DNA of 64,000 nucleotides from an uncultured Myxococcales bacterium (GTDB lineage Bacteria; Myxococcota; Kuafuiibacteriia; Kuafuiibacteriales; Kuafuiibacteriaceae), in assembly GCA_964463485.1 (NCBI GenBank), contig CAYXDO010000010.1:34105-98104 (forward strand). Reading direction: 5' to 3'. Below the pieces are notes generated by a model. The model had not been told where the DNA came from and ran no database searches. It saw nothing but the letters and a program-made list of their open reading frames with translations. The number at the start of each line of letters is the position of its first letter. The stretch's first letter is position 1. Positions 3,711 to 52,913 of this stretch are shown here, one piece after another. The position numbers and the translations under genes are program-made.

Positions 3711-6500
3711 TCAACGTTCGAGCAGCCGACTGAGCGCGCCCATCAACGTCTCGGGCAGCGGCACGCCCTCGAAGATCTCGGCGCGACCTTCGAGCGCAAC
3801 GGGTTGGGTCGGACCGCTGTTCGTGATGATGACGACGAAATCTCGATTTCCATCGTCGCGCAGGCGATGCACGAGATCGAGCCGTGTAGATCCATCGACG
3901 ATGACGGCGTCGAAGCGACTCGCGACCACACGCTCTCCGCGATCACGCGCTCGGCCGAGCACATATCCCGCGACGCGGAGGCGCTCTTCGAGCTCTGGAG
4001 TCAGCGGCGAGTCGCCCACGAGCAGGAGCCGTCGCGGAGGCGGCTGGCGATCGGGCAGATCGAGCGTCGAGATCACGTCTTTGAGGTGGTCGACCAAGGC
4101 CTCCACGACGTCACCGCCGATTCGACCGGAGTTCGCGTCCGCGCGGAGCTCGAGGATCGCAGCTCGAGGAGACGACTCGTCCATACTCGCCCGAAGCACG
4201 CGGCTGTAGCGAGTGACGACGAACGCGATCTCTGCGGGCAGCGAGAGAGGCTGCGTGTCGCCGGCGAGCGCGCGCATGACCTCCAACAACACGTTCCGAA
4301 CGGAGACGGGAGCCAGCGAAGTGATCGAGGTCTGATCGTTGGGCTCGTTGGTCAAGCGATCGGCGAGGTCGACCAGCGAAGCGGCGACGCTCGCACGTCG
4401 TTCCACCGTCGAGCCCGCGTGAAGACGATGGGCCACGAAGCGAGCGAGGATCGCCGGGCGTGCGCTCTCCGGGAGGTTGACCCGAGCGAACGACTGCGCG
4501 CGCTCGATGATCTCGATGAGCGTGTCGACGTACCCTTGGGCCTCCCGCGGGTCGTCACGGTCAGCGTCGCCCGATGCGGTGGTCGACAACGCGGAGATGA
4601 GCTCGCTGGCGCTAGCGAAGCGGCGCGCGGGGTCTTTTTCGAGCAAGCGCATGACGATCGTCGAGAGGTTTGGATCGACGTCGCTCCGCCGCGCGTCGGG
4701 CGGTCTCGGGTAGTGATCTTTGAGCGCGAGGCGAGCGTTGGCCTTGCCCGACGCGAGGAACGGAGGCTCCCCGACCAAGAGGCGATAGGTGAGCGCACCG
4801 AGGGCGAACTGATCGGAGCGGCGCGAGTAGGTGCCTGCGGTGACCGTCTCGGGCGCGTTGGCCGAGACGTTGTTGGCGCGATCGGGATGAGCGGGCTCGG
4901 ACGATGCCTCACCGAGAGAGAGGTCGACGAGAAAGGCGCGGCCTTCTGCGCCGATCAAGACGTTGGAGGTTCGGATGTCGCCGTGCGCGATCCCTACGGA
5001 GTGAAGGTGGTCGAGGGCCTCGGCGAGATCTCGAAGCACGATGGCCCCGCGCGCGGAGCTGAGGCGCCGCTCGGGTTCGAGATATCGCGTCAGCGGCTCG
5101 GCCTCGATGAACGTGAAGACCAGAAAGAAGAGCGGGCCGTCGCGGCCGGCGTCGAGGAGCGTTGGGAGTCGGTGATGACGCACGCGACTCCACAAGCGGG
5201 CTTCACGCTGAAACAGCGCGAGCCGCGCTTCGTCTCCGTGAAGGCGTGTGTCCAAAGCTTTCACGGCGACCTTGCGGTTGATGTGCGGGTCGCGTCCGAG
5301 AAAGACGACGGTGTCGCGTCCTGCCGCGATCTCGGAGAAGAGCTCATAGCGCCCGAGCTTGCGGACCGTTCGATCTGCGTCGTCGCTCGTGGGCTCGTTC
5401 GTGATCGGACGACTCGCGGGCGAGATCGTGGATTCGGGTCCTCGAACGATCTGTTGCTCGACGTCTTTGGCGCCCACCCGGGTGTTCGTGATCTTGGCGA
5501 GCGTGTCGGCATCGAGCTTGAGATCGGGCTGCGTGACCTCCTCCGGCACGACCTTGGGTCGCGGCGGCGGCGAGGATGGAGGCTTCGGAGGTAACGCCGA
5601 GGCCCGGATCTTGGCGCGCCGAGCGCGAGACAGCGCAGCCTCGAAGATGCGCTGTTGTGCTTGGCGCTCTAAGGTGAGCGTCGATCGCAACAAATCCCGA
5701 ATCGCGGCTTCGAGCTGCGGCTTGGAGACCGGGGAGAGGGCGGCTTCGACCTCTTCGAGGTTGGGTCGGGTCGATGGATCGTGGGCGAGCATGCTCAAGA
5801 TCAGCGCTCGAACCTCGGGAGGGGTGTCGACCAGTTTGGCGTCGGATAGCTCTCCACGCTCGATCGCGCTTCTGGTGAGCTCGACGCTCTCTTTGGGAAA
5901 GGCGCTCCTCCCCGTCACCGTCTCGAAGAGGATGGTCCCGAGGGAGAAGACCGTGGCGGGCTCGGCGACGTCCTTACGCGTGAGCGCTTCGGGCGCCGTG
6001 TAAGGAAGCGACCCGGGGCCAGGTGCGAGCGCTGCTCGTGCGATGGCGAGCTCGTGACCGAGCAGCTTCACGGTGCCTTCGTCGGAGAGCATCACGTGTC
6101 GTGGCGTGAGAGACCTGAGGGGCGAGATGCCCTGCGACTGGATGCGGCGAAGGGTGCCGGCAACCTGCGCTACGATTCCGGCGGCCAGAGAAGGGTCGAG
6201 CGCGCCCTTGCGGATCGCCAACGAGAGCGCGCTGCCAGGAACGATCTCGCGCACCGAATAGAGCGCGTTCTCGAAGACGTCGACCTCGAGCACGGTGGCC
6301 ACGCCTGGATCGGAGACAGCGCATGAAGCCGGACCGCTCTCGAGGAGCCACCGGCGAAAGACGAGGTCCTTGGAGACCTCGGGCAGGAACAGCTTGAGCG
6401 CGCGCGCCGGGTCGGATCCTTCCACGACGGCGAAGTAGACGTCGCTCAAGTCTCCCGAGCTCATGCGCGTGAGGAGCTCCCACGAACCAACGCTGTGCAC
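3711..6500 (-). CDS. Tandem pseudokinase-kinase Ser/Thr protein kinase with C-terminal receiver-like domain
   Basis: The N-terminal kinase-like domain lacks the HRD Asp and the DFG motif (LTPRHVMLSDEG; KLLGHELAI). The second domain has VAVK, HGDIRTSN, DLSLG and APE motifs. The C-terminal ~120 aa (LLLVGDSPLT...DAVIVDGS...VVIITN) resembles a CheY-like receiver. Confidence 0.75.
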   Translation of the reverse strand: MHSVGSWELLTRMSSGDLSDVYFAVVEGSDPARALKLFLPEVSKDLVFRRWLLESGPASCAVSDPGVATVLEVDVFENALYSVREIVPGSALSLAIRKGALDPSLAAGIVAQVAGTLRRIQSQGISPLRSLTPRHVMLSDEGTVKLLGHELAIARAALAPGPGSLPYTAPEALTRKDVAEPATVFSLGTILFETVTGRSAFPKESVELTRSAIERGELSDAKLVDTPPEVRALILSMLAHDPSTRPNLEEVEAALSPVSKPQLEAAIRDLLRSTLTLERQAQQRIFEAALSRARRAKIRASALPPKPPSSPPPRPKVVPEEVTQPDLKLDADTLAKITNTRVGAKDVEQQIVRGPESTISPASRPITNEPTSDDADRTVRKLGRYELFSEIAAGRDTVVFLGRDPHINRKVAVKALDTRLHGDEARLALFQREARLWSRVRHHRLPTLLDAGRDGPLFFLVFTFIEAEPLTRYLEPERRLSSARGAIVLRDLAEALDHLHSVGIAHGDIRTSNVLIGAEGRAFLVDLSLGEASSEPAHPDRANNVSANAPETVTAGTYSRRSDQFALGALTYRLLVGEPPFLASGKANARLALKDHYPRPPDARRSDVDPNLSTIVMRLLEKDPARRFASASELISALSTTASGDADRDDPREAQGYVDTLIEIIERAQSFARVNLPESARPAILARFVAHRLHAGSTVERRASVAASLVDLADRLTNEPNDQTSITSLAPVSVRNVLLEVMRALAGDTQPLSLPAEIAFVVTRYSRVLRASMDESSPRAAILELRADANSGRIGGDVVEALVDHLKDVISTLDLPDRQPPPRRLLLVGDSPLTPELEERLRVAGYVLGRARDRGERVVASRFDAVIVDGSTRLDLVHRLRDDGNRDFVVIITNSGPTQPVALEGRAEIFEGVPLPETLMGALSRLLER

Positions 6501-9392: not shown

Positions 9393-9528
9393 GACAGACC
9401 TCGATTGTGCTTCAGGAGGGGGCTGGGTGACGAGTGTTTCGAAACGATAAGCGTTCCGTTTGGGTCCGTTCGATTTTCGGACGGCCTTCGAAAAGCGGAC
9501 GGACGTCCGAGATGACCCGAATCTCAGG

Positions 9529-9545
9529 CTGGCACGAACGTCGCA
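9529..9545 (+). promoter_or_regulatory. Candidate sigma-54 (-24/-12) promoter CTGGCACGAACGTCGCA
   Basis: TGGCAC-N5-TCGCA matches the consensus TGGCAC-N5-TTGCA at every position except one T. GG and GC are correctly spaced. It ends about 14 nt before the ATG at 9559. Confidence 0.3.
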
Positions 9546-9558
9546 CCGGCGCTCGCAC

Positions 9559-10152
9559 ATGAACACGGTCACAAAAGACGCGAACTTACTCGGAGAAGTC
9601 TTGGGCATACCGGAGCGGCGCCGCCCGGCCTTCGAAGATCGGCTGGCCGCGGTCGGTGGGCTCACGGGACTTCTCCGCGCTGGCTCCGAAGCCGTCGGAG
9701 ACGCCATTCCGGCTGGTTCCCTCTCGAAAATGGGAGCCTTGCTCAGCCTGCTCGAGCGGTTCTCCGCTCCGGATGCGCTTCCAAGCCCCGTTTCCCGGGC
9801 TGAGGAGGTGGTCAGCTACTTCGCCCCGCGCCTCAACAACCTGGGCGTCGAGACCGTGTGGGTCCTCGGCCTCGACGCACGTGCACGCCCGGTCGGCACT
9901 TGGTGTGTAGCCCAAGGAACACTCACCGCTTGCTTGGTCCACCCCCGCGAAGTGTTCGCGCCGGCCATTCGCGCGCGCGCCGCGCAAATCGTCGTGATCC
10001 ACAACCATCCGAGCGGCGATCCAGCCCCGAGCGACGAAGACCACGAGCTAACACGACGGATCGGCGAGGCCGGCGAGCTCCTCGGCATCCCCCTGCTCGA
10101 TCACATCGTCGTCGCGCGCGCAGGCTTTCGATCGCTCGGACCCAACATCTGA
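9559..10152 (+). CDS. radC: RadC-like JAB/MPN domain protein
   Basis: C-terminal IVVIHNHPSGDPAPSDEDHELTRRIGEAGELLGIPLLDHIVV is the JAMM/RadC signature H-x-H-P-S-G...D. Start taken at MNTVTKD (ATG 9559). The ORF track start at 9460 is also possible. Confidence 0.7.
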   Translation: MNTVTKDANLLGEVLGIPERRRPAFEDRLAAVGGLTGLLRAGSEAVGDAIPAGSLSKMGALLSLLERFSAPDALPSPVSRAEEVVSYFAPRLNNLGVETVWVLGLDARARPVGTWCVAQGTLTACLVHPREVFAPAIRARAAQIVVIHNHPSGDPAPSDEDHELTRRIGEAGELLGIPLLDHIVVARAGFRSLGPNI

Positions 10153-18303: not shown

Positions 18304-18704
18304 CGTCCGAGCCTATCGCCTCTCCGATCGCCGGGCTCTTGGCGCGCGCAGCCGAAGTAGTGCCTGGCCCAGACGCGAACCGCCGGTTCTCCGAGCTCCG
18401 CGAGCAGACGCTCGCGGCTCACGGCTTCGTCGCGCTGTTGGAGTTCGTGCTGCCGGAGACGGACCCGTGGCGTGATCTAATCGGGCGCGTCGTGCCTCGA
18501 CTCGCGCGACTCGTGGGCGATCGCGGCCATCCGTTCCCGGGAGCGCCCTTCATGATCGTGCCTCTTTGGTATGGAACGTCGGCCTACGTCTTCGTGGCCA
18601 ACGAGCTGTTCGTTCACATCGCGGAGCTCGAAGGCATCACACTCGACGTCCTCGAAGCGCGCGCCCGTGGCCCGCGGTTGGCGTTGGGGCCCGGCTCGAC
18701 CTGA
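18300..18704 (+). CDS. Hypothetical protein (translationally coupled to the M23 peptidase, ATGA overlap)
   Basis: 134-aa ORF. No recognisable domain. Its stop lies inside a 15-bp tandem repeat. Confidence 0.4.
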   Translation: MTSEPIASPIAGLLARAAEVVPGPDANRRFSELREQTLAAHGFVALLEFVLPETDPWRDLIGRVVPRLARLVGDRGHPFPGAPFMIVPLWYGTSAYVFVANELFVHIAELEGITLDVLEARARGPRLALGPGST

Positions 18705-18728
18705 CGTTTGGAGACCTGACGTTTGGAG
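18699..18728. repeat. Tandem direct repeat 2 x CCTGACGTTTGGAGA
   Basis: Read directly: cctgacgtttggaga cctgacgtttggaga, upstream of comM/yifB. Confidence 0.8.
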
Positions 18729-18780
18729 ACCTCGTCTCTTCGGTCAGTCTGAAATCCCAAACTCGTGCGACCGCGGTCCT

Positions 18781-18814
18781 TCGTCCGAAAATCGCATCCA
18801 TCGTCCGAAAATCG
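18781..18814. promoter_or_regulatory. Two direct copies of CGTCCGAAAATCGC at 20-bp spacing (candidate operator), upstream of comM/yifB
   Basis: cgtccgaaaatcgcatccatcgtccgaaaatcgc. The same core CGTCCGAAA(A/T)T recurs as a palindrome upstream of recA (21563..21579). Confidence 0.5.
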
Positions 18815-18885
18815 CGAAAACCGGAGCTCGAGATCGCGTGGCCTTCGATCCTCATAGCGGCGCGGACTTTGCTTTCGTGCGCGAC

Positions 18886-20439
18886 GTGCTCGCGACTCTT
18901 CATTCATCTACTCTGATCGGCGTTCGTGCGGATCCCATCGAAATCGAGGTGGAGTTCGCGCAAGGTCTACCGCTGTTCACCATCATCGGACTCGCAGATA
19001 CGGCGGTGCAGGAGGCGCGTTTTCGGATCCAGTGCGCGCTCAGAGCGACCGGAATCGAGATTCCGAGAAAACGAGTGACGCTGAATCTCGCGCCGGCCTC
19101 GATCAGAAAAGACGGCGCCGCGCTGGATCTGCCGATGGCCCTCGGTCTGTTGGTCGCTGCGGAGCGACTCGCGCCAGAGTGTCTTACCGGAACCCTCGTG
19201 CTCGGCGAGCTCGCGCTCTCCGGCGCCGTTCGTCCGGTCCGAGGGATCGTATCGGCGGCCGCGCTCGCTCGAAGGCTCGGCCTGAGTCGCATCATCGTGC
19301 CTCCTGAAAACGCGGCCGAAGCTCTCGCCGTCGGAGGGCTCGAAGTATTGGCGCCCAAGGATCTGGGCGCACTCATGGACCACCTCGAGGGTCGCCAAGC
19401 GCTCGGTGCACCAACGATCACGACACCCCGACCCATGATCACGTCGTCGCTGGATCTCAGCGACATTCGAGGTCAGGCCGGAGCTCGAAGAGCGCTGGAA
19501 ATCGCCGCAGCCGGAGGTCACAACGTCTTGTTCGTGGGTCCACCCGGCAGCGGAAAGACGATGCTCGCGCGAAGGCTCCCCGGAATCCTTCCTCCGATGA
19601 CCCATGCCGAGCAGATCGAGGTGACCGAGGTCTGGTCAGCCGCGGGCCTCACCATGAATGGGCATGGTCTGGTCACCGAGCGTCCGTTTCGAGCGCCTCA
19701 TCCGAGTATCAGCGAGGCTGGTCTCGTCGGCGGCGGACCCACCGTTCGACCGGGCGAGATTTCGCTGTCGCATCGAGGCGTGCTGTTTCTAGACGAGATG
19801 CCCGAGATCCCGAGGCGCGTGCTCGAAGCGTTGCGACAACCGCTCGAAGATCGAGAGGTCGTGATCTCGCGCGCGCGACAGTTCGTGAGGCTGCCGGCCG
19901 CGTTCCAACTCGTGGCGGCAGCCAACCCATGTCCTTGCGGATGGTTCGGTGACGCGCTTCGAAGCTGTCGCTGCTCGGCGATCGACGTACAGAAGTATGC
20001 GGGCCGCATCTCCGGGCCGCTCATCGATCGCATCGACCTGGTCGTTTCGGTGGAGACCTTGGCTCCCGCTGAGATCCTGACCGAGCGGGTTCGTTGGGAC
20101 TCCGACGATTCCTCTCGAGTGCGGGCGCGCGTGACTCGCGCGCGTGAGCTCGCGTTCGCTCGCGGCGTGCGAGAGAACGCGTCACTCACGCGAGCTCGGC
20201 TGGAGTCGAGCGGAACGGTCACGAGCGGGGCGCGAGACACGCTCACGCGGGCCGCCGAGAAGCTGCGATTGTCCGCGCGAGTCATCGACAGAGTGCTGAA
20301 GATCGGCCGTACGATCGCGGATCTCTCTTCGGAGTCGGAGGTCCGGGAGTCGGCGATTCTAGAAGCGCTGACCTACCGCGCGCCGTCTTCGTGGGCGAGC
20401 GGGTCACGGACGACTTCGGACGTCGGGCTGAGTCGATGA
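18886..20439 (+). CDS. comM: YifB/ComM family Mg-chelatase-like AAA+ ATPase
   Basis: GTG start giving (M)LATLHSSTLIGVRADPIEIEVEF, a canonical ComM N-terminus. Lon-like domain, Walker A VGPPGSGKTMLA, and ChlI-type C-terminus. The ORF-track upstream extension to 18571 is non-coding repeat DNA. Confidence 0.85.
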   Translation: MLATLHSSTLIGVRADPIEIEVEFAQGLPLFTIIGLADTAVQEARFRIQCALRATGIEIPRKRVTLNLAPASIRKDGAALDLPMALGLLVAAERLAPECLTGTLVLGELALSGAVRPVRGIVSAAALARRLGLSRIIVPPENAAEALAVGGLEVLAPKDLGALMDHLEGRQALGAPTITTPRPMITSSLDLSDIRGQAGARRALEIAAAGGHNVLFVGPPGSGKTMLARRLPGILPPMTHAEQIEVTEVWSAAGLTMNGHGLVTERPFRAPHPSISEAGLVGGGPTVRPGEISLSHRGVLFLDEMPEIPRRVLEALRQPLEDREVVISRARQFVRLPAAFQLVAAANPCPCGWFGDALRSCRCSAIDVQKYAGRISGPLIDRIDLVVSVETLAPAEILTERVRWDSDDSSRVRARVTRARELAFARGVRENASLTRARLESSGTVTSGARDTLTRAAEKLRLSARVIDRVLKIGRTIADLSSESEVRESAILEALTYRAPSSWASGSRTTSDVGLSR

Positions 20440-20597
20440 GGATCTCCCGTCGACGGTCCTCGAGCGGGACTTCCTCGTTCACCTGATCGGATGTTGAGTA
20501 TTGAGTATGAATCTGCGGGTGAATCCGTCCGTGTGGTGAATGATAGAGTGGTGCTTCGCCGTGAGCACGGAGGTGTTGTGCAAGTTGGAGAGATGGA

Positions 20598-20627
20598 CGT
20601 GCCGACACGGCTCGCGCCGTCGGCACG
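20598..20627. terminator. GC-rich hairpin between convergent comM and AT-hook gene (candidate bidirectional terminator)
   Basis: cgtgccgacacggc-tcgc-gccgtcggcacg: about a 12-bp stem with a 2-nt bulge. No U-tract. Confidence 0.35.
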
Positions 20628-20718
20628 GGAGTGAGGACAAAGGGTGAGGCTCGACCTTGGAGGTCGACTCAGAAGTCTCGGGAAGGAAGTCAGTGGCCGG
20701 GAATGTCCCGACTACAAC

Positions 20719-21114
20719 TCAGCCCTGTTTCTTCTTGCGGCGCGCTTCCCACATCTTGCGGGCGCGCTCGGCGGCCTGGCGGCGGGACTCTTCGCTCCAA
20801 TTCGGCTTCTTGCGGTCACCCTCGGACGCCGAGGCGACCTCCTGAGTCTTGGCGGGCTTCTCTTCGGCCTTGGAGCGCTTGCGCGGAGCCTTGGGGGGCA
20901 CGGGCTTGGCCTCGACCGCGGCCTTCGGCGGACGTCCGGGCTTCTTTCCCGAACCCTTCGGCCGACCGGGGCCGCGCTTCACCGGCGCGTCACCCTTGAG
21001 AGCTCCGACGAGACTCTCGAGTGCCTTGATGTGACCATCGAGTTGCGTACGCTCGCTGCGGAACTTTTCGAGTACCGCCGCGAGGTCCTTGGTGGTTTGT
21101 GCGAGTGCGGACAT
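20719..21114 (-). CDS. Small coiled-coil / AT-hook DNA-binding protein (paralog of 23011..23301)
   Basis: N-terminal heptad-like segment. AT-hook-like GRPKGSGKKPGRPPK. Conserved C-terminal motif WSEESRRQAAERARKMWEARRK shared with the 23011..23301 protein. Confidence 0.7.
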   Translation of the reverse strand: MSALAQTTKDLAAVLEKFRSERTQLDGHIKALESLVGALKGDAPVKRGPGRPKGSGKKPGRPPKAAVEAKPVPPKAPRKRSKAEEKPAKTQEVASASEGDRKKPNWSEESRRQAAERARKMWEARRKKKQG

Positions 21115-21161
21115 GTTGTGGCGTTATCGCATGCTCAGATCGATCTCGCAATGACTCTCGA

Positions 21162-21180
21162 TCGATTAATCGAAAAAAAA
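21162..21180. promoter_or_regulatory. Perfect 12-bp palindrome TCGATTAATCGA followed by an A8 tract in the promoter region of the AT-hook gene
   Basis: Read directly. Lies 48-66 nt upstream of the minus-strand start at 21114. Confidence 0.4.
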
Positions 21181-21502
21181 TTCTCGAGAACGGATCGGTC
21201 GACGGATCGGAGGACCGACCCTCGGCGAATTTTCGAGCCTCTAGGGATCGTTTCTAGGGATTCTCGGACCGCCATGGCCCATTCCGGGTCGGCCGCCTCG
21301 AACTCGCAGATCGCTCCGTTCTCATCGTTTGAATCATTCTGTGCCCGAATTCGAGGGTAGATGACTGGGCCCTTGGGACCTTCTGGATCCGGCGTCGACG
21401 CCTGCGATCGATCTCAGGCGGCTCGCGACGCCTCCGAAAAGGGGAGGACGGGGAAATTTTCCGCGAGAACCACGACGCCACCCGAGGCGGAGTTGGCGAT
21501 CT

Positions 21503-21535
21503 CATGACGCACTCCGCATGACGCACTCCGCATGA
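21503..21535. repeat. Tandem repeat 2.3 x CATGACGCACTCCG upstream of recA
   Basis: catgacgcactccg catgacgcactccg catga. Confidence 0.7.
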
Positions 21536-21543
21536 ATTTCGTG

Positions 21544-21579
21544 AAAAGCGTTTTCGGATCATCGTCCGAAATTCGGACG
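21544..21579. promoter_or_regulatory. Two adjacent palindromes upstream of recA: GAAAAGCGTTTTC and CGTCCGAAATTCGGACG (17-bp perfect inverted repeat)
   Basis: Read directly. About 145 nt upstream of the recA ATG. Shares CGTCCGAAA(A/T)T with the comM upstream region. Confidence 0.5.
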
Positions 21580-21723
21580 TCGGAGGGCCGGGCGCGCGCG
21601 CTTTCGACCTCGCTCGAGCGGCACGTGAGTTGCGAAGGGGCGAGGAGTTCGCGGCGGATCTCCGGGGTCGGCGCAATTCCGCGCCTTCGCTTTCGGGTCA
21701 GGGTCCGTCGCCTGGGAGTTCAT

Positions 21724-22860
21724 ATGTCGATGAAGGACAAGCTCAAGACGGTCGCGCAAGCCATGGGGGAGATCGAAAAGCAGTTCGGGCGAGGTGCGAT
21801 CATGTGGCTCGGCGGGGAGAGCTCGACGGTGCAGGGTTCGGTTTCGGTGATCCCGAGTGGGTCGGTGGGAGTGGATCGCGCGCTCGGCGTCGGCGGCCTC
21901 CCGCGCGGGCGAATCGTAGAAGTCTTCGGTCCGGAGTCGTCCGGAAAGACCACCTTCGCGCTCCACGCGATCGCCGAGGTACAGAAATTGGGCGGAATCG
22001 CCGCCTTCATCGACGCGGAGCACGCGCTCGATCCGAGGTACGCCAGGTCGCTCGGGATCGACCTCGAGAGGTTGTTGGTATCTCAGCCGGACTCCGGTGA
22101 GCAGGCGCTCGAGATCTGCGAGAGCCTGGTGAGGAGCTCCGCGGTCGATCTCATCGTGGTGGACTCCGTCGCGGCCTTGGTGCCCAAGGCCGAGCTCGAG
22201 GGGAGCATGGGCGACGCGCACGTCGGGCTCCAGGCTAGGCTGATGTCGCAAGCCATGCGGAAGCTCACCGGTCAGATCTCGAAGACCGGCTCGTCGATCC
22301 TCTTCATCAATCAGACTCGGCAGAAAATCGGCGTGATGTTCGGCTCGCCGGAGACGACGACGGGAGGCACCGCGCTGAAATTCTACGCGTCGGTGAGGTT
22401 GGAAGTTCGGCGGATCGGCACGGTCAAAGACGGAGAGGTCGTGACTGGCAGTCGCGTTCGCGCGAAGGTGGTGAAGAACAAGTTGGCGCCGCCCTTTCGG
22501 GAGGCCGAGTTCGACATCATGTACGGCGGCGGGATCTCCACCGCGTGCGAGTTGTTGGACATGGGCGTCGAGCGTGGCCTCGTAGAGAAGTCAGGCGCGT
22601 GGTACTCCTTGCTCGACACGCGCATCGGCCAGGGTCGGGAGCGCTCCCGAGTCTGGCTCGAGCAGCGTCCCGTCCTCATGGAGAGACTGCGCACCGCGCT
22701 GTTGTCCGAAGACCTCGACCGCTCCGTGCTCGGGTCGCCGACCTCCTGGGAGCCCGAGGCCACCCCGGAAGGCGACTCAAGCGCTGCGAAGCCAGATGCT
22801 CCCGTCGGTCGCAACGGAGTCTTCTCCGAAGTCTCCTCGATGACTGCGCAGGCTTCTTGA
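21724..22860 (+). CDS. recA: Recombinase RecA
   Basis: [30 protein letters not shown]...GPESSGKTT...[22 protein letters not shown] is unmistakable RecA. The ORF-track N-terminal extension from 21532 is rejected. Confidence 0.95.
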
Positions 22861-23010: not shown

Positions 23011-23301
23011 TCACGCGTCCGCTTTGCGGCGCGCTTCCCACATTCGACGGGAACGCTCGGCAGCCTGACGGCGAGCCTCCTCGCTCCAGACCGGCCTCTT
23101 TCGCGACTTCGCCGGAGCCTCGGCCGGAGCCGCAACCGCTACGACCGCCTTCGGCTTGCGACCGCGCTTCTTCGGCGCGGCTTCCGCCGAGCTCGCTTTG
23201 GCGCCGGTGAACGCACCAATCTGTTGATCCATGGCCCGAGCCTCAGCTCGGAGTACTTCGAGTGCTCTCTCGAGCACGGGGACGACATCATCGAACCGCA
23301 T
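23011..23301 (-). CDS. Small coiled-coil / basic DNA-binding protein (paralog of 20719..21114)
   Basis: KKRGRKPK basic motif. C-terminal WSEEARRQAAERSRRMWEARRK. About 80% nucleotide identity with the 3' end of 20719..21114. Confidence 0.65.
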   Translation of the reverse strand: MRFDDVVPVLERALEVLRAEARAMDQQIGAFTGAKASSAEAAPKKRGRKPKAVVAVAAPAEAPAKSRKRPVWSEEARRQAAERSRRMWEARRKADA

Positions 23302-35837: not shown

Positions 35838-37364
35838 GTGGCCGATCCGACGAGGCTCGAGCGCGAACGCGATTTGTACTCGAGCCTCCTGGAGCTGTGG
35901 CAGTGCGAAGATTTGGACCCGGTGCTTCAGCGCGCGTTGACCCTTGCGGTTCAAGCCACAGGCGCTCACCACGGATACTTGGCGGTGTACTCGGGGCGCG
36001 ATCGTTCGTTCACGCCGGAGTGGAGCGTAGCTCACGCTCTCGAAGGCGAGGATCTCGAGCGCGCCCGTCGAGTGATTTCGAGCGGAATCATCGCCAAGGC
36101 GATGGCGACGGGGGAGACGATCCAGACTCCGTCGGCGTTACATGATGAGCGTTTCGCAACGCAGACCAGCGTGCGAGCCTATCGCATTCACGCCGTGCTC
36201 TGCGTTCCGATCCAAGCGGGCGACGCGACGGGGGTGGTCTATCTCCAGGGCGGGCCGGAGGGCCAGCCGTTCGGTCAAGACGATGTTCGCCTGGCCGAGA
36301 TCTTGGCGCGACAAGTCGCGGCGCAAGTCCGGCGATTGTTGATCGTGGCAGCGCGTTCGAAAGATCAGGACCCAACTCAGCCGTTCAGGGAGCGCCTGCA
36401 CGCCGAGGAGATCATCGGGCGCAGCGCGGCGGTCGCCGATTTGCTCCGAAATGTCGCACTCGTCGCACCGCTCGACGTGTCCGTCTTGCTGACGGGACCC
36501 TCGGGCACCGGCAAGACCCTGTTGGCGCGGACCATTCATAGAAACGGTCCTCGGCGGGCCGGACCCTTCGTGGAGTTGAATTGTGCGAGCCTGCCGGAGA
36601 CGACGGCGGAGGCGGAGCTATTCGGGGCGCTGCCGGCGAGCCTGGCAGGGGGCCCCGAAGGTCACGTCGGGAGTGTCTCGGTGGCGCAGGGCGGCACGCT
36701 CTTGCTCGACGAGATCGGAGACCTTCCACTCGGCGCGCAAGCGAAGCTCCTGCAGGTCCTCCAGTCGAAATCATACAACCCGCTGGGTTCGAGTCGGCCG
36801 CGGTCGGCGGACGTTCGCATCATCGCCGCGACCAAGGCACCCATCGAGGAGTTGGTGGAGCGAAAGCTGCTCCGAGAGGATCTCTATTATCGACTCAACG
36901 TGGTCCGCGTGCGTCTGCCAACCCTGGCCGAGCGCGTCGAAGACGTCGGGTTGTTGGCCGATCACTTCCTGACCGCGGCGAGTCACAAACACAACCTTCC
37001 GCGGCTGGACTTGTCCCCGCGCGCACGCACGGTGCTCGAGAACGCCGATTGGCCGGGTCACGTTCGTCACTTGGCGCACGTGGTGGAGGCCGGGCTCATT
37101 CGTGCGTCCGGCGACGCCGATTCCGTGGTGGAGCCGCATCATCTCTTCGAAGAGGCCGAGTCCGAAGGTCGCGAGCCGAGCTTTCACGAGGCCACTCGCA
37201 GATTTCAAAAGAGCCTCTTGGAGCGGGCGCTCGAAGCGACCGACTGGAACGTGATTGAAGCAGCTCGACGGCTCGACCTCGGCCGCAGTCGAGTCTACGC
37301 GCTCATTCGCGCCTACAACCTCGCCCGCAAATCGAACCCTCAGGTCCAGCGTCGACCAGGCTGA
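35838..37364 (+). CDS. GAF-AAA+-HTH NtrC-family regulator lacking the GAFTGA sigma-54 contact motif
   Basis: GAF-like N-terminus. Walker A LLTGPSGTGKTLLA. ELFGA is followed by LPASLAGGPEGHVG where bEBPs carry GAFTGA. C-terminal Fis-type HTH. Confidence 0.8.
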   Translation: MADPTRLERERDLYSSLLELWQCEDLDPVLQRALTLAVQATGAHHGYLAVYSGRDRSFTPEWSVAHALEGEDLERARRVISSGIIAKAMATGETIQTPSALHDERFATQTSVRAYRIHAVLCVPIQAGDATGVVYLQGGPEGQPFGQDDVRLAEILARQVAAQVRRLLIVAARSKDQDPTQPFRERLHAEEIIGRSAAVADLLRNVALVAPLDVSVLLTGPSGTGKTLLARTIHRNGPRRAGPFVELNCASLPETTAEAELFGALPASLAGGPEGHVGSVSVAQGGTLLLDEIGDLPLGAQAKLLQVLQSKSYNPLGSSRPRSADVRIIAATKAPIEELVERKLLREDLYYRLNVVRVRLPTLAERVEDVGLLADHFLTAASHKHNLPRLDLSPRARTVLENADWPGHVRHLAHVVEAGLIRASGDADSVVEPHHLFEEAESEGREPSFHEATRRFQKSLLERALEATDWNVIEAARRLDLGRSRVYALIRAYNLARKSNPQVQRRPG

Positions 37365-46194: not shown

Positions 46195-46646
46195 CGCCCG
46201 ATTATAGCCGGCCGTTGGCGACCTTGCAGACGATTCGCAGGCGACAATCGCGCACTCTTGCGATTACGTACGTTGGCCGAAGACCGCGCCCAGCTCGGCG
46301 GCCCGCACAGATCCGGCCCCTACACTCGCCGCGAGGGACTGAGCACGAAAGGCTTGGGAGAATCGGCGCGGGTGATGGACGATGGCTAGCCTGGAGCTCG
46401 CGCTGGTCACCATCTCCCGCTTCGTCTCGACCTGGGTGCCTGGAGCCGCCTCGGCCTTGACTGATTCCGCGACGGCGGCGGACGAAGAGCTCGAAATCGG
46501 TCGAAAGCCGGTCACCTGCATGAACGGCTTCTTCGCAATCCTCGGGCCAGGGCTCGAGACTCACGAGAACACGGCGCCGCGTCGCCTGCAGGCGACACCG
46601 GCAGTCCATTTCGTTCGCTCGAGGAAACGGGGACAACCATGTCGAG

Positions 46647-49211: not shown

Positions 49212-49853
49212 TCAGGGGATGAGTGCCTCGCAGCTTCGGCCGTTCGCGTTCACGACGGTGGAGTTCGCGGCTCGGGTGGCATCGAGGCGGCACTGGTCGT
49301 TGCCGCCGCCGCCGTCGATCTGTGGGTCGGAGTCCGGGCCGTCCCAGGTAACGGTGTCGTTGCCGAGTCCGCCGAACAAACGGTCGCGACCCACGCCGCC
49401 CTGGACGATGTCGTCCCCGTTGTCGCCGAACACCGAGTCGTCGCCGAGGTTGCCCCGCACGAGGTCGGCGCCGTCGCCGCCGTGGAGGATGTCGTTTCCG
49501 CTGAATCCGAACACGACGTCATTGCCGGCCTCTCCGTCGATGAAGTCGTCCCCGTCGAAGCCGATGAGGATGTCGTCGCCGGCGTGGCCGAGGATCGTGT
49601 CGTTGCCGCCGAGGCCGAGGATGCAGTCATCGGAGAGGTCTCCCAGACCGGAGAGTACGTCGTCGCCATCGGTACCGACGATCACGCGCTCAGGAGGGAA
49701 CGGGATGCCGTCTCGCTGGCAGTAGGCAGCCACGAAGTCGGCGATGGCGGCACCTTCGAGCGCGAGCTCGGAGTCAGCGACCTGGTTGTCGAAACCGCCG
49801 CAGGCGGTGACGGTGACGAAGGCCGGGGCGAGGAACAAATTTTTGACTCTCAT
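49212..49853 (-). CDS. RTX (hemolysin-type) calcium-binding repeat lipoprotein
   Basis: Lipobox FVTVTACGG. More than 8 nonapeptide repeats of GGxGxDxhx type (LGGNDTILGHAGDDILIGFDGDDFIDGEAGNDVV...). Confidence 0.75.
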   Translation of the reverse strand: MRVKNLFLAPAFVTVTACGGFDNQVADSELALEGAAIADFVAAYCQRDGIPFPPERVIVGTDGDDVLSGLGDLSDDCILGLGGNDTILGHAGDDILIGFDGDDFIDGEAGNDVVFGFSGNDILHGGDGADLVRGNLGDDSVFGDNGDDIVQGGVGRDRLFGGLGNDTVTWDGPDSDPQIDGGGGNDQCRLDATRAANSTVVNANGRSCEALIP

Positions 49854-50148
49854 GATTTTCGTTTCCTATCTATTTCGGTTTCGAGGGTTCATCAGGGCGC
49901 CGCGGCTCTGCCGTCGAGTGACTTACCTTCGTTTGCCAAGGGGCGCCGACGAAGTCGCGGGCAGGACCGCATGCGCTAGTGCGTCGCAAGAACGGCGCCA
50001 ACCGCACAGCGTCGGGTTCGATGCGCCTTGGGTGTTGCAGTTCGATACGCTCGTCGGAGACGATGCAGAACGCGACGGGCCCACCGAAGAAATTCCTTCC
50101 GGGCCACCGGGAACGAACTCTGCTTTGCACGGGAAGGACACGAACGAA

Positions 50149-51564
50149 ATGAGGCTTACCCGAAAGCTTGTCCTCGCGCTCTCACTTGCGATTCTCGTGG
50201 TCCTCGGGATCAACGCAGCAGTTCGGATTCGTCGAGAGGTGAGTTTCTTCCAATCCGAGATGAGTCGCGACAGCCGAGTCCTGGGGCGCACCGTGGCCGG
50301 GTCGGTGGCCTTGATCTGGCAGCGCGTTGGTCAGGCCGACGCCCAGGCGCTGGTCGAGGATGCCAACGAACGCGAGACGAAGTTTCTGATTCGGTGGGTA
50401 TGGCTCGGGGACCTCGCCTCGTCAGCCGCACGGCTCGACGCGGCGCGGATCGACGCGATTCAGCGCGGCGAGATCGTGACGCAGCGGGCCGCGACGCCGG
50501 ACGGCTTCGACGCGGCCTACACGTACATTCCGATCGAGCACGCCGGAAAGGCGGCGGCGGCCATCGAGATCCGCGAGTCGCTCGAGGCGGAGGCGGAGTA
50601 TCTCCGGCGCTCGATCGTGCAGACGCTCATCACGACGACGACGCTCGTGTGTGTGTGTTCGGCGCTGGCGTTTGCGCTCGGAGCGATCTTGGTGGGGCGG
50701 CCCGTGCGGAGCCTCGTTCAGCAGGCGCGGCGGATCGGTGAGGGCGATCTGTCTGCTCGCCTGAGTCTTTCGCAGCGGGACGAGATGAGCGACTTGGCGC
50801 GAGAGATGAATTCGATGTGTGAGCGACTGGCGCAGGCGCGGGAGCGACTGGAGTCCGAGACCGCGGCGCGGGTGGCGGCCGTCGAGCAACTCAGGCACGC
50901 CGACCGGCTGACTGCGGTGGGTCGGATGGCCGCGGGGATCGCGCACGAGCTCGGCACGCCCCTCAACGTCATCGTCGGCCACGCCCAAATCGTCGAGGAG
51001 GAGCAACCCGAGACCAAGGAGGGGATGAGAGTGATCGTCGAGCAAGCGCGGCGAGTCACGACGATCATCCGGCAGCTCCTGGACTTTGCGCGTCCCAGGG
51101 CGCCGGATCGGATGATTCAGGAGCTGCACCCGATCGCGGGTCAGGTCGTGACGCTGCTGAGATCGCTCGCGAAGAAGCAGGGCGTGGAGCTCGTGCTGGA
51201 GGGTCCGGAGGGTCCGGTATCCGCGTCGGTGGATGCGGGCCAGCTTCACCAGGCGCTCACGAACCTGGTGATGAATGCGATTCAGTCGATGCCCGGGGGA
51301 GGTGTGGTAAGACTTCGAGTGAGGTCCGAGGGGGAGGACGCGGTCGTCGACGTGGAGGACGAGGGCGAAGGGATCGCGCCCGAGGTCAGGCCGCGCATTT
51401 TCGATCCTTTTTTTACGACCAAGGCCCCCGGTGACGGGACGGGGCTCGGCCTTTCGGTCGCGTATGGCATGATGAAGGAGCACGGTGGGTTCATCGAGCT
51501 CACGGGTCGGTCGGAGGGTGGGTCGAGGTTCTCGATTCACGTTCCGCGCGGGAGTTTCGCATGA
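50149..51564 (+). CDS. Sensor histidine kinase (TM-HAMP-HisKA-HATPase)
   Basis: Start MRLTRKLVLALSLAIL. H-box AHELGTPLN. G-boxes DEGEGI...GLGLSV. The ORF-track start at 49744 is rejected. Confidence 0.85.
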   Translation: MRLTRKLVLALSLAILVVLGINAAVRIRREVSFFQSEMSRDSRVLGRTVAGSVALIWQRVGQADAQALVEDANERETKFLIRWVWLGDLASSAARLDAARIDAIQRGEIVTQRAATPDGFDAAYTYIPIEHAGKAAAAIEIRESLEAEAEYLRRSIVQTLITTTTLVCVCSALAFALGAILVGRPVRSLVQQARRIGEGDLSARLSLSQRDEMSDLAREMNSMCERLAQARERLESETAARVAAVEQLRHADRLTAVGRMAAGIAHELGTPLNVIVGHAQIVEEEQPETKEGMRVIVEQARRVTTIIRQLLDFARPRAPDRMIQELHPIAGQVVTLLRSLAKKQGVELVLEGPEGPVSASVDAGQLHQALTNLVMNAIQSMPGGGVVRLRVRSEGEDAVVDVEDEGEGIAPEVRPRIFDPFFTTKAPGDGTGLGLSVAYGMMKEHGGFIELTGRSEGGSRFSIHVPRGSFA

Positions 51565-52913
51565 AGTCGAGAGTGCTCGTCGTCGATGACGACGCGGACA
51601 TGTGTCGGATGTTGGAGGCGAGCTTGTCTCGCCGAGGATTCTCCGTTTCGGCCTTTTCGGATCCGGCGCGGGCGTTCGAGGAGATTCGGAGCGCGGACTT
51701 CGATGTCGCAGTCACGGACTTGAACATGAAGGGAATGAACGGCTTCGAGCTCTGCGAGCGGATCTTGGGCGATCGACCGGACGTGCCCGTCGTCGTCATC
51801 ACCGCTTTTGGGAGTATGGACTCTGCGATCAAGGCGATTCGAGCAGGTGCGTACGACTTTCTTCCCAAGCCATTCGAGACCGACGCGCTCGTGGTGGCGC
51901 TCGAGCGGGCCATCCAGCACCGGGTGCTTCGCCAGGAGGTCAAGCGTCTGCGCGCCGTCGTCGAGCAGTCACAGCGGTTCAACGAGATCATCGGGGCGAG
52001 CCCCGCGATGCAGGCGACCTATGCGCTCCTCGACCGGATCTCGGATTCCGAGTCGCCGGTGTTGATCACGGGCGAGAGCGGGTGCGGCAAGGAGCTCGTC
52101 GCGAGGGCCCTGCACGCAAGGAGCCGCCGGCACTCCGGGCCGTTCGTGGCGGTGAGTTGCGCGGCGATGCCCGAAGCGCTCCTGGAGAGTGAGCTCTTCG
52201 GGCACGTGCGCGGAGCGTTCACGGACGCTCACGTGTCGCGCGCGGGGATCTTCCAGAAGGCGAGCGGAGGCACGTTGTTCCTGGACGAGATCGGCGAGCT
52301 TCCGCTCTCGCTCCAGCCCAAGCTCCTGCGAGCGTTGCAGGAGAAGACGATTCGCCCGGTGGGATCCGACGAGGAGGTCCCCTTCGACGCGCGGATCGTC
52401 ACGGCGACCAACCGGGACCTCGAGACCGAAGTCCACGAGAAGACTTTCCGCAGCGACCTCTTCTATCGAATCAACGTGATCTGCGTGGAGCTCCCGCCGT
52501 TGCGGAGTCGTGGGACGGACGTGCTGCTGCTGGCTCACCACTTTCTCGAGAAATACAGCCGCGCCGCGGGGAAGACCATCGCCGGGATCTCGTCCGGCGC
52601 GGCCTCGAAGCTGCTGGCCTACGTGTGGCCAGGCAACGTCCGCGAGCTGTCGAACGCGATCGAGCGCGCCGTCGCGGTGGCGCAATACTCGGAGATTTCG
52701 GTCGAAGATCTCCCGAGCAAGATTCGCGACCACGAGCGGAGCCACGTGGTGGTCGTCAGCGACGACCCTTCCGACCTCGTCCCACTGGACACCGTGGAGC
52801 AGCAGTACATTCAGCGCGTGGTCGAGTCGACGGGAGGCAACAAGACTCTGGCCGCGAAGATCCTCGGTCTCGACCGGACGACCTTGTATCGAAAGCTCGA
52901 GCGCTCGAAGTGA
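51561..52913 (+). CDS. Sigma-54-dependent response regulator (NtrC family: REC-AAA+-Fis HTH)
   Basis: REC VLVVDDD...DVAVTDLNMKGMNG. ESELFGHVRGAFTDAH (GAFTGA variant). C-terminal HTH. ATGA-coupled to the kinase. Confidence 0.9.
   Translation: MKSRVLVVDDDADMCRMLEASLSRRGFSVSAFSDPARAFEEIRSADFDVAVTDLNMKGMNGFELCERILGDRPDVPVVVITAFGSMDSAIKAIRAGAYDFLPKPFETDALVVALERAIQHRVLRQEVKRLRAVVEQSQRFNEIIGASPAMQATYALLDRISDSESPVLITGESGCGKELVARALHARSRRHSGPFVAVSCAAMPEALLESELFGHVRGAFTDAHVSRAGIFQKASGGTLFLDEIGELPLSLQPKLLRALQEKTIRPVGSDEEVPFDARIVTATNRDLETEVHEKTFRSDLFYRINVICVELPPLRSRGTDVLLLAHHFLEKYSRAAGKTIAGISSGAASKLLAYVWPGNVRELSNAIERAVAVAQYSEISVEDLPSKIRDHERSHVVVVSDDPSDLVPLDTVEQQYIQRVVESTGGNKTLAAKILGLDRTTLYRKLERSK

Follow-up and report, generated by a model that had tools for sequence, protein, structure and literature searches.

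We identified a 17-bp dyad, CGTCCG-AWWTT-CGGACG, upstream of comM, recA and radC in a 64,000-nucleotide stretch of genomic DNA (64% G+C) from an uncultured Myxococcales bacterium (contig CAYXDO010000010.1). We refer to this whole stretch as the window (W in alignments) and to loci retrieved from relatives by their labels (L002, L082 and so on). An initial annotation had noted the motif core, CGTCCGAAA(A/T)T, before comM and recA and had proposed that it is a DNA-damage operator. The core is present upstream of both genes and also of radC, and all three genes have a predicted -24/-12 promoter of the sigma-54 class downstream of the dyad. This arrangement makes it likely that the dyad is an upstream activating sequence (UAS, or enhancer) of three sigma-54-dependent promoters and not a repressor operator.

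The three genes were assigned by their Pfam domains. comM/yifB (18886..20439, plus strand) encodes a Mg-chelatase-like AAA+ protein (Pfam Mg_chelatase 1e-89, with ChlI and Mg_chelatase_C) and likely starts at GTG 18886. recA (21724..22860, plus strand; Pfam RecA 3e-132) starts at ATG 21724. The radC-like gene (9559..10152, plus strand; Pfam RadC 3e-37) encodes a JAB-domain protein, and its start is aligned with those of its orthologues. The comM and recA identities given by the initial annotation are thus confirmed, as is its view that the motif marks genes of DNA repair and recombination, with radC as a third member that it had missed. Most of the remaining larger open reading frames (ORFs) in the window were annotated, and no further DNA-repair or recombination gene was found among them. 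The motif is located upstream of all three DNA-recombination genes of the window and upstream of none of the approximately 45 others.

Dyad quality differs among the three genes (dyads are given without strand). The recA dyad is a perfect palindrome (CGTCCGAAATTCGGACG, 21563..21579), exactly as the initial annotation had described it. It is the top match in the window by position weight matrix (PWM), scoring 26.9, or 26.3 with a second matrix that was built from other genomes' sites only and contains no window sites, and it is centred 49 bp upstream of the -24 GG. At radC the element is near-perfect, with two mismatches. Dyad 1 (CGTTCGATTTTCGGACG, 9467..9483; PWM 24.6, or 23.7 with the non-window matrix) is centred 56 bp upstream of the GG, and dyad 2 (CCTTCGAAAAGCGGACG, 9485..9501; PWM 17.7 and 16.2, respectively) follows 18 bp later and is centred 38 bp upstream of the GG.

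Upstream of comM, CGTCCGAAAATCGC occurs twice (18782-18795 and 18802-18815). The 20-bp spacing reported earlier is correct, and the coordinates (18781-18814) needed a shift of one base to the right. Tandem Repeats Finder (TRF) describes the two copies as a 20-bp repeat present 2.0 times (18777-18815, 94% identical). As full dyads, comM site 1 (CGTCCGAAAATCGCATC, 18782..18798; PWM 9.8; centre 69 bp upstream of the GG) and site 2 (CGTCCGAAAATCGCGAA, 18802..18818, 20 bp from site 1; PWM 11.3) combine a strong left arm with a weak right arm. The centre of site 2 is 49 bp upstream of the GG, equal to the recA distance. Relative to the gene, the strong arm at comM is oriented oppositely to the strong arm at radC.

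The sequence CGAWTTTCGGACG is common to all four strong sites. Positions 3 (T) and 15 (A) never vary, and the conserved information resides in the GC-rich arms CGTCCG/CGGACG. A possible extra half-site (TTTTCGGAT, 21551..21559), which precedes the right arm of the recA dyad by 19 bp, may also belong to the element; its CGGATC is kept in L082.

Several counts indicate how rare the element is. Across the 64 kb there are four exact copies of the 11-mer CGTCCGAAAWT, all of them upstream of comM, recA or radC. With the non-window matrix, the recA and radC scores given above compare with 13.3 for the next, unrelated match in the window and with a maximum of 21.4 in 200 Markov simulations. The same matrix found one match of at least 17 outside the clade described below in approximately 2.3 Mb of retrieved loci, nearly all from other lineages. 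Judged from the sequences, the motif is far beyond chance: it is a real cis-regulatory element shared by a few genes of DNA recombination and repair.

We scored sigma-54 promoters in a blind run on both strands, using a simple consensus count (maximum 22) over all GG-N10-GC candidates. Among 1012 candidates in the window, the predicted radC promoter (TGGCACGaacgTCGCA, 9530..9545, plus strand; GG 9531-32, GC 9543-44) ranks first with 20.5, the predicted recA promoter (CGGCACGtgagTTGCG, also given as cGGCACGtgagTTGCg; 21619..21634, plus strand; GG 21620-21, GC 21632-33) second with 20.0, and the predicted comM promoter (CGGCGCGgactTTGCT, also given as cGGCGCGgactTTGCT; 18858..18873, plus strand; GG 18859-60, GC 18871-72) joint third with 19.5. 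At all three genes, the GG and GC doublets are exactly 10 bp apart in a TGGCACG-N4-TTGCW-like context, and the dyads are 38–69 bp upstream. A scan of 18600-21800 for sigma-70-like promoters returned no site.

High-scoring sigma-54-like 16-mers are no more numerous in the window than expected by chance (4 observed, 2.5 ± 1.7 simulated). The signal is thus the placement of the sites. Three of the four are located 38–69 bp downstream of the motif, on the gene strand and just before a start codon, a placement with a chance probability of approximately 1e-8 (0.0023 per 120-nt stretch, cubed). The fourth (TGGCCCGAGGATTGCG, 46534-46549, minus strand) is not preceded by a dyad and is followed by nothing more than a doubtful 85-aa ORF; it is probably a chance match.

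At comM and radC, the predicted promoters are close to the start codons. The radC ATG follows the -12 GC by 14 nt and the comM GTG by 13 nt (9543-9561 and 18871-18888, respectively), and a distance of 12–14 nt recurs at 10 of 12 comM and radC promoters of the clade and likewise in L002, L003 and L174. Beyond the window, this near-leaderless geometry was observed in L082, L084, L158, L171, L172, L164-L166, L003, L002 and L174. The comM and radC transcripts would thus be leaderless or carry a leader of 2–3 nt. The window comM mRNA would begin with GUG; leaderless sigma-54 transcripts look unusual.

We compared these promoters with those of relatives reached by protein look-ups. The window RecA has an exact protein match in GCA_016208175.1 (contig JACQYO010000081.1), a metagenome-assembled genome (MAG) labelled 'Deltaproteobacteria bacterium', and its nearest RecA relatives are uncultivated Myxococcota-type genomes. 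The clade set comprises eight related assemblies, with RecA 69–84% identical to that of the window, and provides 19 promoters of comM, recA or radC. All 19 have a sigma-54 -24/-12 match (score 18–21 of 22). At least one dyad scoring at least 11 accompanies 16 of the 19 promoters, and at least one scoring at least 17 accompanies 13. Dyads are present in one to three tandem copies, mostly 18–21 bp apart (27 bp in L172), and their centres are 38–201 bp upstream of the -24 GG. Dyad-promoter distances tend towards a helical phasing of approximately 10.2 bp (R approximately 0.6–0.7), which is suggestive only, as the promoters are non-independent and several periods were tried.

Individual loci illustrate this conservation. 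In L084, whose ComM and RecA are 52% and 70% identical to those of the window, comM is preceded by the dyads CGTCCGAAATTCGGAAG and TGTCCGAAATCCGGACG and then the promoter TTGGCACCGCGGTTGCT, and recA by the dyads CGTTCGGATTTCGGACA and TTTCCGAATTTCGGACG and then the promoter CGGCACGTTGCTTGCG. The radC genes of L165 (from the same assembly as L084), L166 (from an 11.5-Mb genome) and L164 (from the closest relative) each have two strong dyads and a sigma-54 promoter; the orthologous radC promoters of L164 and L166 read TGGCACGGAGGTCGCA and TGGCACACGCGGTGCT. Orthologous recA promoters are present in L083, L084 and L170-L172. A comM promoter lies 28–29 nt before the start codon in L082, L084, L158, L171, L172, L003, L002 and L174; for L084 and L158 the position equals that in the window. 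Sites in four loci were found after the matrix had been fixed and are thus independent confirmations: L083 recA (22.0 and 16.5), L170 comM (21.2 and 19.3) and recA (22.0), L171 comM (19.3), and L172 comM (21.0 and 17.3).

The dyads recur upstream of the same three gene families where ComM or RadC identity is only 45–56%. The initial annotation had named a lack of conservation at orthologous loci as grounds for refutation, and the motif is kept at these loci in relatives. In the alignment of W with L082 (ComM 75% identical), the recA sigma-54 promoter is inside a block of 27 identical positions out of 27, the best conserved part of the 600-bp recA intergenic region, and a weaker dyad (CCGCCGATTTCCGGACC) occupies the orthologous position. 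In L165, two copies of a repeat of approximately 60 bp (containing GGGCCGTYAACGGCGGAGCAAGTCCGCCTGCGGCCCCTTCGCTCGCGGTGCTCGC; 2808-2940) are inserted between the radC dyads and the promoter. The L165 dyads remain near-perfect (23.7 and 24.7) despite this 120-bp insertion and are now 183–201 bp upstream. The -12 element of L165 radC reads CTGT, not TTGC.

Upstream position, tandem dyads and variable distance together constitute the enhancer anatomy of a sigma-54 activator. We propose that a dimeric bacterial enhancer-binding protein (bEBP; an AAA+ activator with a C-terminal helix-turn-helix domain) would recognise the 17-bp dyad and assemble on one to three tandem sites approximately two helical turns apart. 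By DNA looping, it would contact the closed complex of RNA polymerase and sigma-54 at the downstream -24/-12 promoter, and would use ATP to open that promoter, so that comM, recA and radC would be turned on together. In some relatives, comM is followed directly by ogt and recA, which may share its transcript. Sigma-54 and the enhancer-binding protein are predicted to act at these promoters from the sequences, and DNA damage or competence/starvation would be the obvious candidates for the inducing signal.

Three bEBP genes are encoded within the window, implying that the genome uses sigma-54. They comprise a GAF-AAA-HTH_8 gene (35838-37364), a REC-AAA-HTH_8 gene that is accompanied by a histidine kinase (49744-52913; bEBP 51561-52913), and an FHA-AAA gene with no HTH_8 match (56454-57824) that adjoins a convergent Ser/Thr kinase (region to 59359). 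Together with the large tandem-kinase protein described below, these three genes in 64 kb make up a typical Myxococcota signalling load.

Several observations weigh against the enhancer interpretation. First, the promoter scorer is a crude consensus count. Second, the window dyads are at approximately -62 to -94 from the predicted transcription start, nearer than the classical -100 to -150. Third, scored as full dyads, the comM sites of the window are weak (PWM 10–11, inside the noise range of the window), and the two copies may be a recent slippage duplication. Fourth, the dyad is not uniformly conserved: in L082, the closest relative, the recA dyad is degenerate and none can be recognised at comM, and the recA genes of L171 and L172 have a sigma-54 promoter with no clear dyad. 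Finally, no bEBP gene was found beside the target genes in the scanned loci of seven relatives; the three bEBP genes of the window, at 14–35 kb from recA, are not preceded by a dyad, and rpoN is not among the window genes.

We consider it unlikely, as an alternative, that the dyad is bound by a dimeric repressor (LexA-like, XRE or WYL type) that silences comM, recA and radC until DNA damage occurs. A perfect 17-bp palindrome before recA has classic operator anatomy, and comM is an SOS gene in Alphaproteobacteria. Myxococcus xanthus also has a large LexA-independent damage response (PMC12288472), and PexR, a myxobacterial bEBP, can repress from similar repeats as well (PMC12754779). The location of the dyads argues against this alternative: none of them overlaps a -24/-12 element or a start codon, and repression by occlusion would not tolerate distances ranging from 38 to 201 bp. 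A repressor at sigma-54 promoters would have to be an anti-activator or block the activator site. Moreover, sigma-54 promoters do not fire unless an activator is present, and apart from the dyad we saw no conserved upstream element capable of acting as the enhancer. The dyads are tandem, apparently distance-tolerant and upstream of conserved sigma-54 promoters, and the initial proposal of an operator, in the sense of a repressor site over the promoter, is thus not supported.

Known boxes do not rescue a LexA-type reading. The initial annotation had stated that neither site matches a known LexA box, and indeed none of the tested patterns is present in the comM, recA or radC upstream regions. 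The Myxococcus, Gram-positive, Escherichia coli and cyanobacterial LexA patterns have no match anywhere in the window; the alpha-type and Geobacter-type patterns have one match each, both far from the three upstream regions. Patterns for CRP, CRP-S (TGCGA-N6-TCGCA), DriD and PexR were likewise absent from the three upstream regions, and CRP-S was absent from the whole window.

Quite unlikely, in our judgement, is a second alternative in which an accessory or architectural protein binds the dyad, for example the coiled-coil/AT-hook protein encoded between comM and recA, while the activator acts elsewhere or from solution. In all clade genomes that were examined, the AT-hook gene (with KRGPGRPK motifs) is syntenic with comM and recA, the 5-bp dyad centre is AT-rich, and the FHA-AAA bEBP of the window lacks an HTH_8 match. 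However, the conserved GC-rich arms and invariant T3/A15 point to a sequence-specific dimeric reader and not to a minor-groove AT-hook, and radC has the best tandem dyads yet adjoins no AT-hook gene. That the dyad has no regulatory function and is a dispersed short repeat, a slippage product or a chance likeness is very improbable, for although three short tandem duplications (the comM copies among them) are found in the same intergenic regions and sigma-54-like 16-mers are at chance level, the dyads recur at orthologous positions before three gene families at the low identities given above, occur nowhere else in the window, are nearly confined to the clade in the retrieved loci, and mark all three recombination genes and none of the others.

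We also examined control loci. These comprise RecA matches from a genome collection (58–68% identical, many phyla) and ComM matches from metagenomes (mostly 44–48% identical), and the counts that follow are among the matches listed. A strong sigma-54 promoter precedes comM in two of the 76 metagenome loci, L084 and L158, both of which belong to the clade; none was found at the remaining 74, most of which are distant. A sigma-54 score of at least 19.5 was found at two of 80 recA loci from other phyla, and the dyad motif is absent from all recA control loci. In total, approximately 150 comM and recA loci of other phyla have neither the dyad nor the promoter.

Outside the clade, a comM sigma-54 promoter was identified in five further genomes (13–16 nt before the start codon in four), and three of the five have a recognisable dyad beside it. 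Anaeromyxobacter sp. RBG_16_69_14 has the promoter together with two one-mismatch dyads 20 bp apart, and another Myxococcales MAG has it with the variant dyad CGCCGAcatTCGGCG. Myxococcales SKS1.bin67 has the promoter as well, and so does the cultured Anaeromyxobacter oryzae; in A. oryzae we could discern no clear dyad. In Corallococcus sp. EGB, sigma-54-like promoters precede both comM and the adjoining recA. The initial annotation had spoken of a lineage-specific regulon, a description that proves too narrow given the occurrence of the comM sigma-54 promoter in Anaeromyxobacter, Corallococcus and Myxococcales MAGs.

The Corallococcus recA promoter (CGGCATGAGCGTTGCT; L173, 7933-7948) is 53 nt before the ATG. 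In M. xanthus, recA1 is the recA copy that lacks a LexA box (PMC7029660). Should the comM-near recA of Corallococcus be orthologous to recA1, that M. xanthus gene may depend on sigma-54. In a Bacteriovoracaceae MAG (L037; 714-728 and approximately 840-855), recA is preceded by a good sigma-54-like promoter (TGGTACGGTCTTTGCT), and a dyad (GTCCAAAAATCGGAC) is located approximately 120 bp upstream, within the end of a pgpA-like ORF. Such a pairing of dyad and promoter may thus exist outside Myxococcota.

The intergenic regions contain further repeats that the initial annotation had treated as companions of the motif. A perfect 14-bp tandem repeat near recA (21503-21535, 2.4 copies) was borne out by TRF with the extent originally given. 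A perfect 15-bp repeat near comM is also present, with a TRF extent of 18698-18732 (2.3 copies) in place of 18699-18728. GAAAAGCGTTTTC (21543-21555), described as a second palindrome, is a 5-bp inverted repeat around GCG and not a perfect palindrome. All three are absent from the closest relative, L082, and were therefore rejected as parts of the element; they are window-specific and probably incidental slippage duplications. One slippage-like duplication in the comM/recA intergenic regions may have produced the second comM motif copy. An Rfam search of 18600-21800 gave no match at E<=1, and no known RNA element thus explains the recA palindrome.

Gene order around comM and recA is kept in most relatives: M23 peptidase, (a small ORF), comM, a small AT-hook protein, (aat) and recA. 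The gene aat, encoding Leu/Phe-tRNA-protein transferase, is directly upstream of recA in L083, L084 and L170-L172, and some of these relatives add a 2-oxoacid-dehydrogenase-like gene. The window (21115-21723) and L082 lack both genes and have a non-coding gap of 480–600 bp instead; no aat remnant was found in the long recA intergenic region. A uracil-DNA glycosylase gene adjoins comM in Anaeromyxobacter, and ogt is directly downstream of comM in several relatives, giving these neighbourhoods a repair flavour.

Members of the AT-hook protein family are 73–164 aa long and contain an N-terminal coiled coil, one to four KRGPGRPK AT-hooks and a C-terminal (K/R)PxWSxExRRxxxxRMxxxWxxRRK motif. A 131-aa copy had no Pfam match. 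One copy is always located between comM and recA (window 20719-21114, minus strand; L083 7999-8301; L170 8768-9118; L171 8846-9133; L172 8872-9171; L084 10134-10628), and in the window a further, shorter copy closely follows recA (23011-23232, minus strand). Elsewhere, the window encodes an AbiEii-type nucleotidyltransferase toxin of a type IV toxin-antitoxin system (59513-60202, minus strand) and a large tandem-kinase protein (3711-6500, minus strand).

Among known systems, the nearest validated example is M. xanthus PexR at katB. Its binding sites are three tandem CACCG-n6-CGGTG repeats that precede the sigma-54 promoter of katB (PMC12754779). The likeness is close: the phylum is the same, both systems have tandem interrupted palindromes (5-n6-5 for PexR, 6-n5-6 here), and the promoters share the form yTGGCACGrnnnTTGCw (PMC12754779). 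The half-sites differ (CACCG/CGGTG for PexR, GTCCG/CGGAC here), as does the function (peroxide defence as opposed to DNA recombination). PexR is an AAA+ bEBP demonstrated at katB, whereas the reader of the window dyad is putative.

NtrC at the enteric glnAp2 promoter offers a second parallel. It binds a 17-bp dyad, TGCACCA-N3-TGGTGCA, requires at least two sites for oligomerisation, and activates a -24/-12 promoter from a distance. The window element is likewise a 17-bp odd-centred dyad in tandem sites upstream of a predicted -24/-12 promoter. Unlike the NtrC sites, at approximately -108 and -140, many of the dyads described here are at approximately -62 to -105. The two sequences are unrelated, and NtrC serves nitrogen control as opposed to DNA metabolism.

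The LexA/SOS system resembles the present one in having a palindrome before recA and comM and in overlapping gene content, comM being the alphaproteobacterial SOS gene mentioned above. It differs in that its boxes (including CTRHAMRYBYGTTCAGS) do not match the dyad in sequence, in the location of the dyad upstream of the promoter, and in the sigma-54 class of that promoter; radC, moreover, is not a typical SOS gene. Competence regulons provide a further comparison. comM and radC belong to the Sxy/TfoX-CRP-S regulon of Gammaproteobacteria, and recA and radC to the ComX/ComK regulons of Firmicutes. As in these regulons, the three genes form the DNA-processing core of natural transformation and, as we propose here, would be under positive control; unlike in them, there is no TGCGA-N6-TCGCA site and the sigma factor class is different.

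The proposed mechanism is that of an ordinary sigma-54 enhancer. What is new is the motif and the content of the regulon, chiefly recA under proposed positive sigma-54 control. An in silico sigma-54 survey placed COG2003 (RadC) among the repair COGs enriched near predicted sigma-54 promoters, with no mention of recA, comM, an upstream dyad or a Myxococcota-specific regulon (PMC12316311). We found no description of sigma-54 or bEBP control of recA or comM in the literature searched. In M. xanthus, the regulators of the large LexA-independent damage response are not known, and several sigma-54 activators rise after mitomycin C treatment (PMC12288472).

We tentatively suggest, as a possibility that we hold less firmly than the enhancer reading itself, that comM, recA, radC and perhaps ogt form a positive sigma-54 regulon across much of Myxococcota, with one dedicated bEBP that reads GTCCG-N5-CGGAC and that could be the missing regulator of the LexA-independent damage response or of natural competence. 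The pair of dyad and promoter provides a concrete, testable handle on both questions in myxobacteria. The presence of the comM sigma-54 promoter in cultured A. oryzae and in Corallococcus sp. EGB makes it experimentally tractable. In almost all studied bacteria, recA is negatively controlled, by LexA, another repressor or a WYL/XRE factor. If the enhancer reading is correct, recA, comM and radC would instead stay silent unless a dedicated sensor turned them on, a different logic of recombination control.

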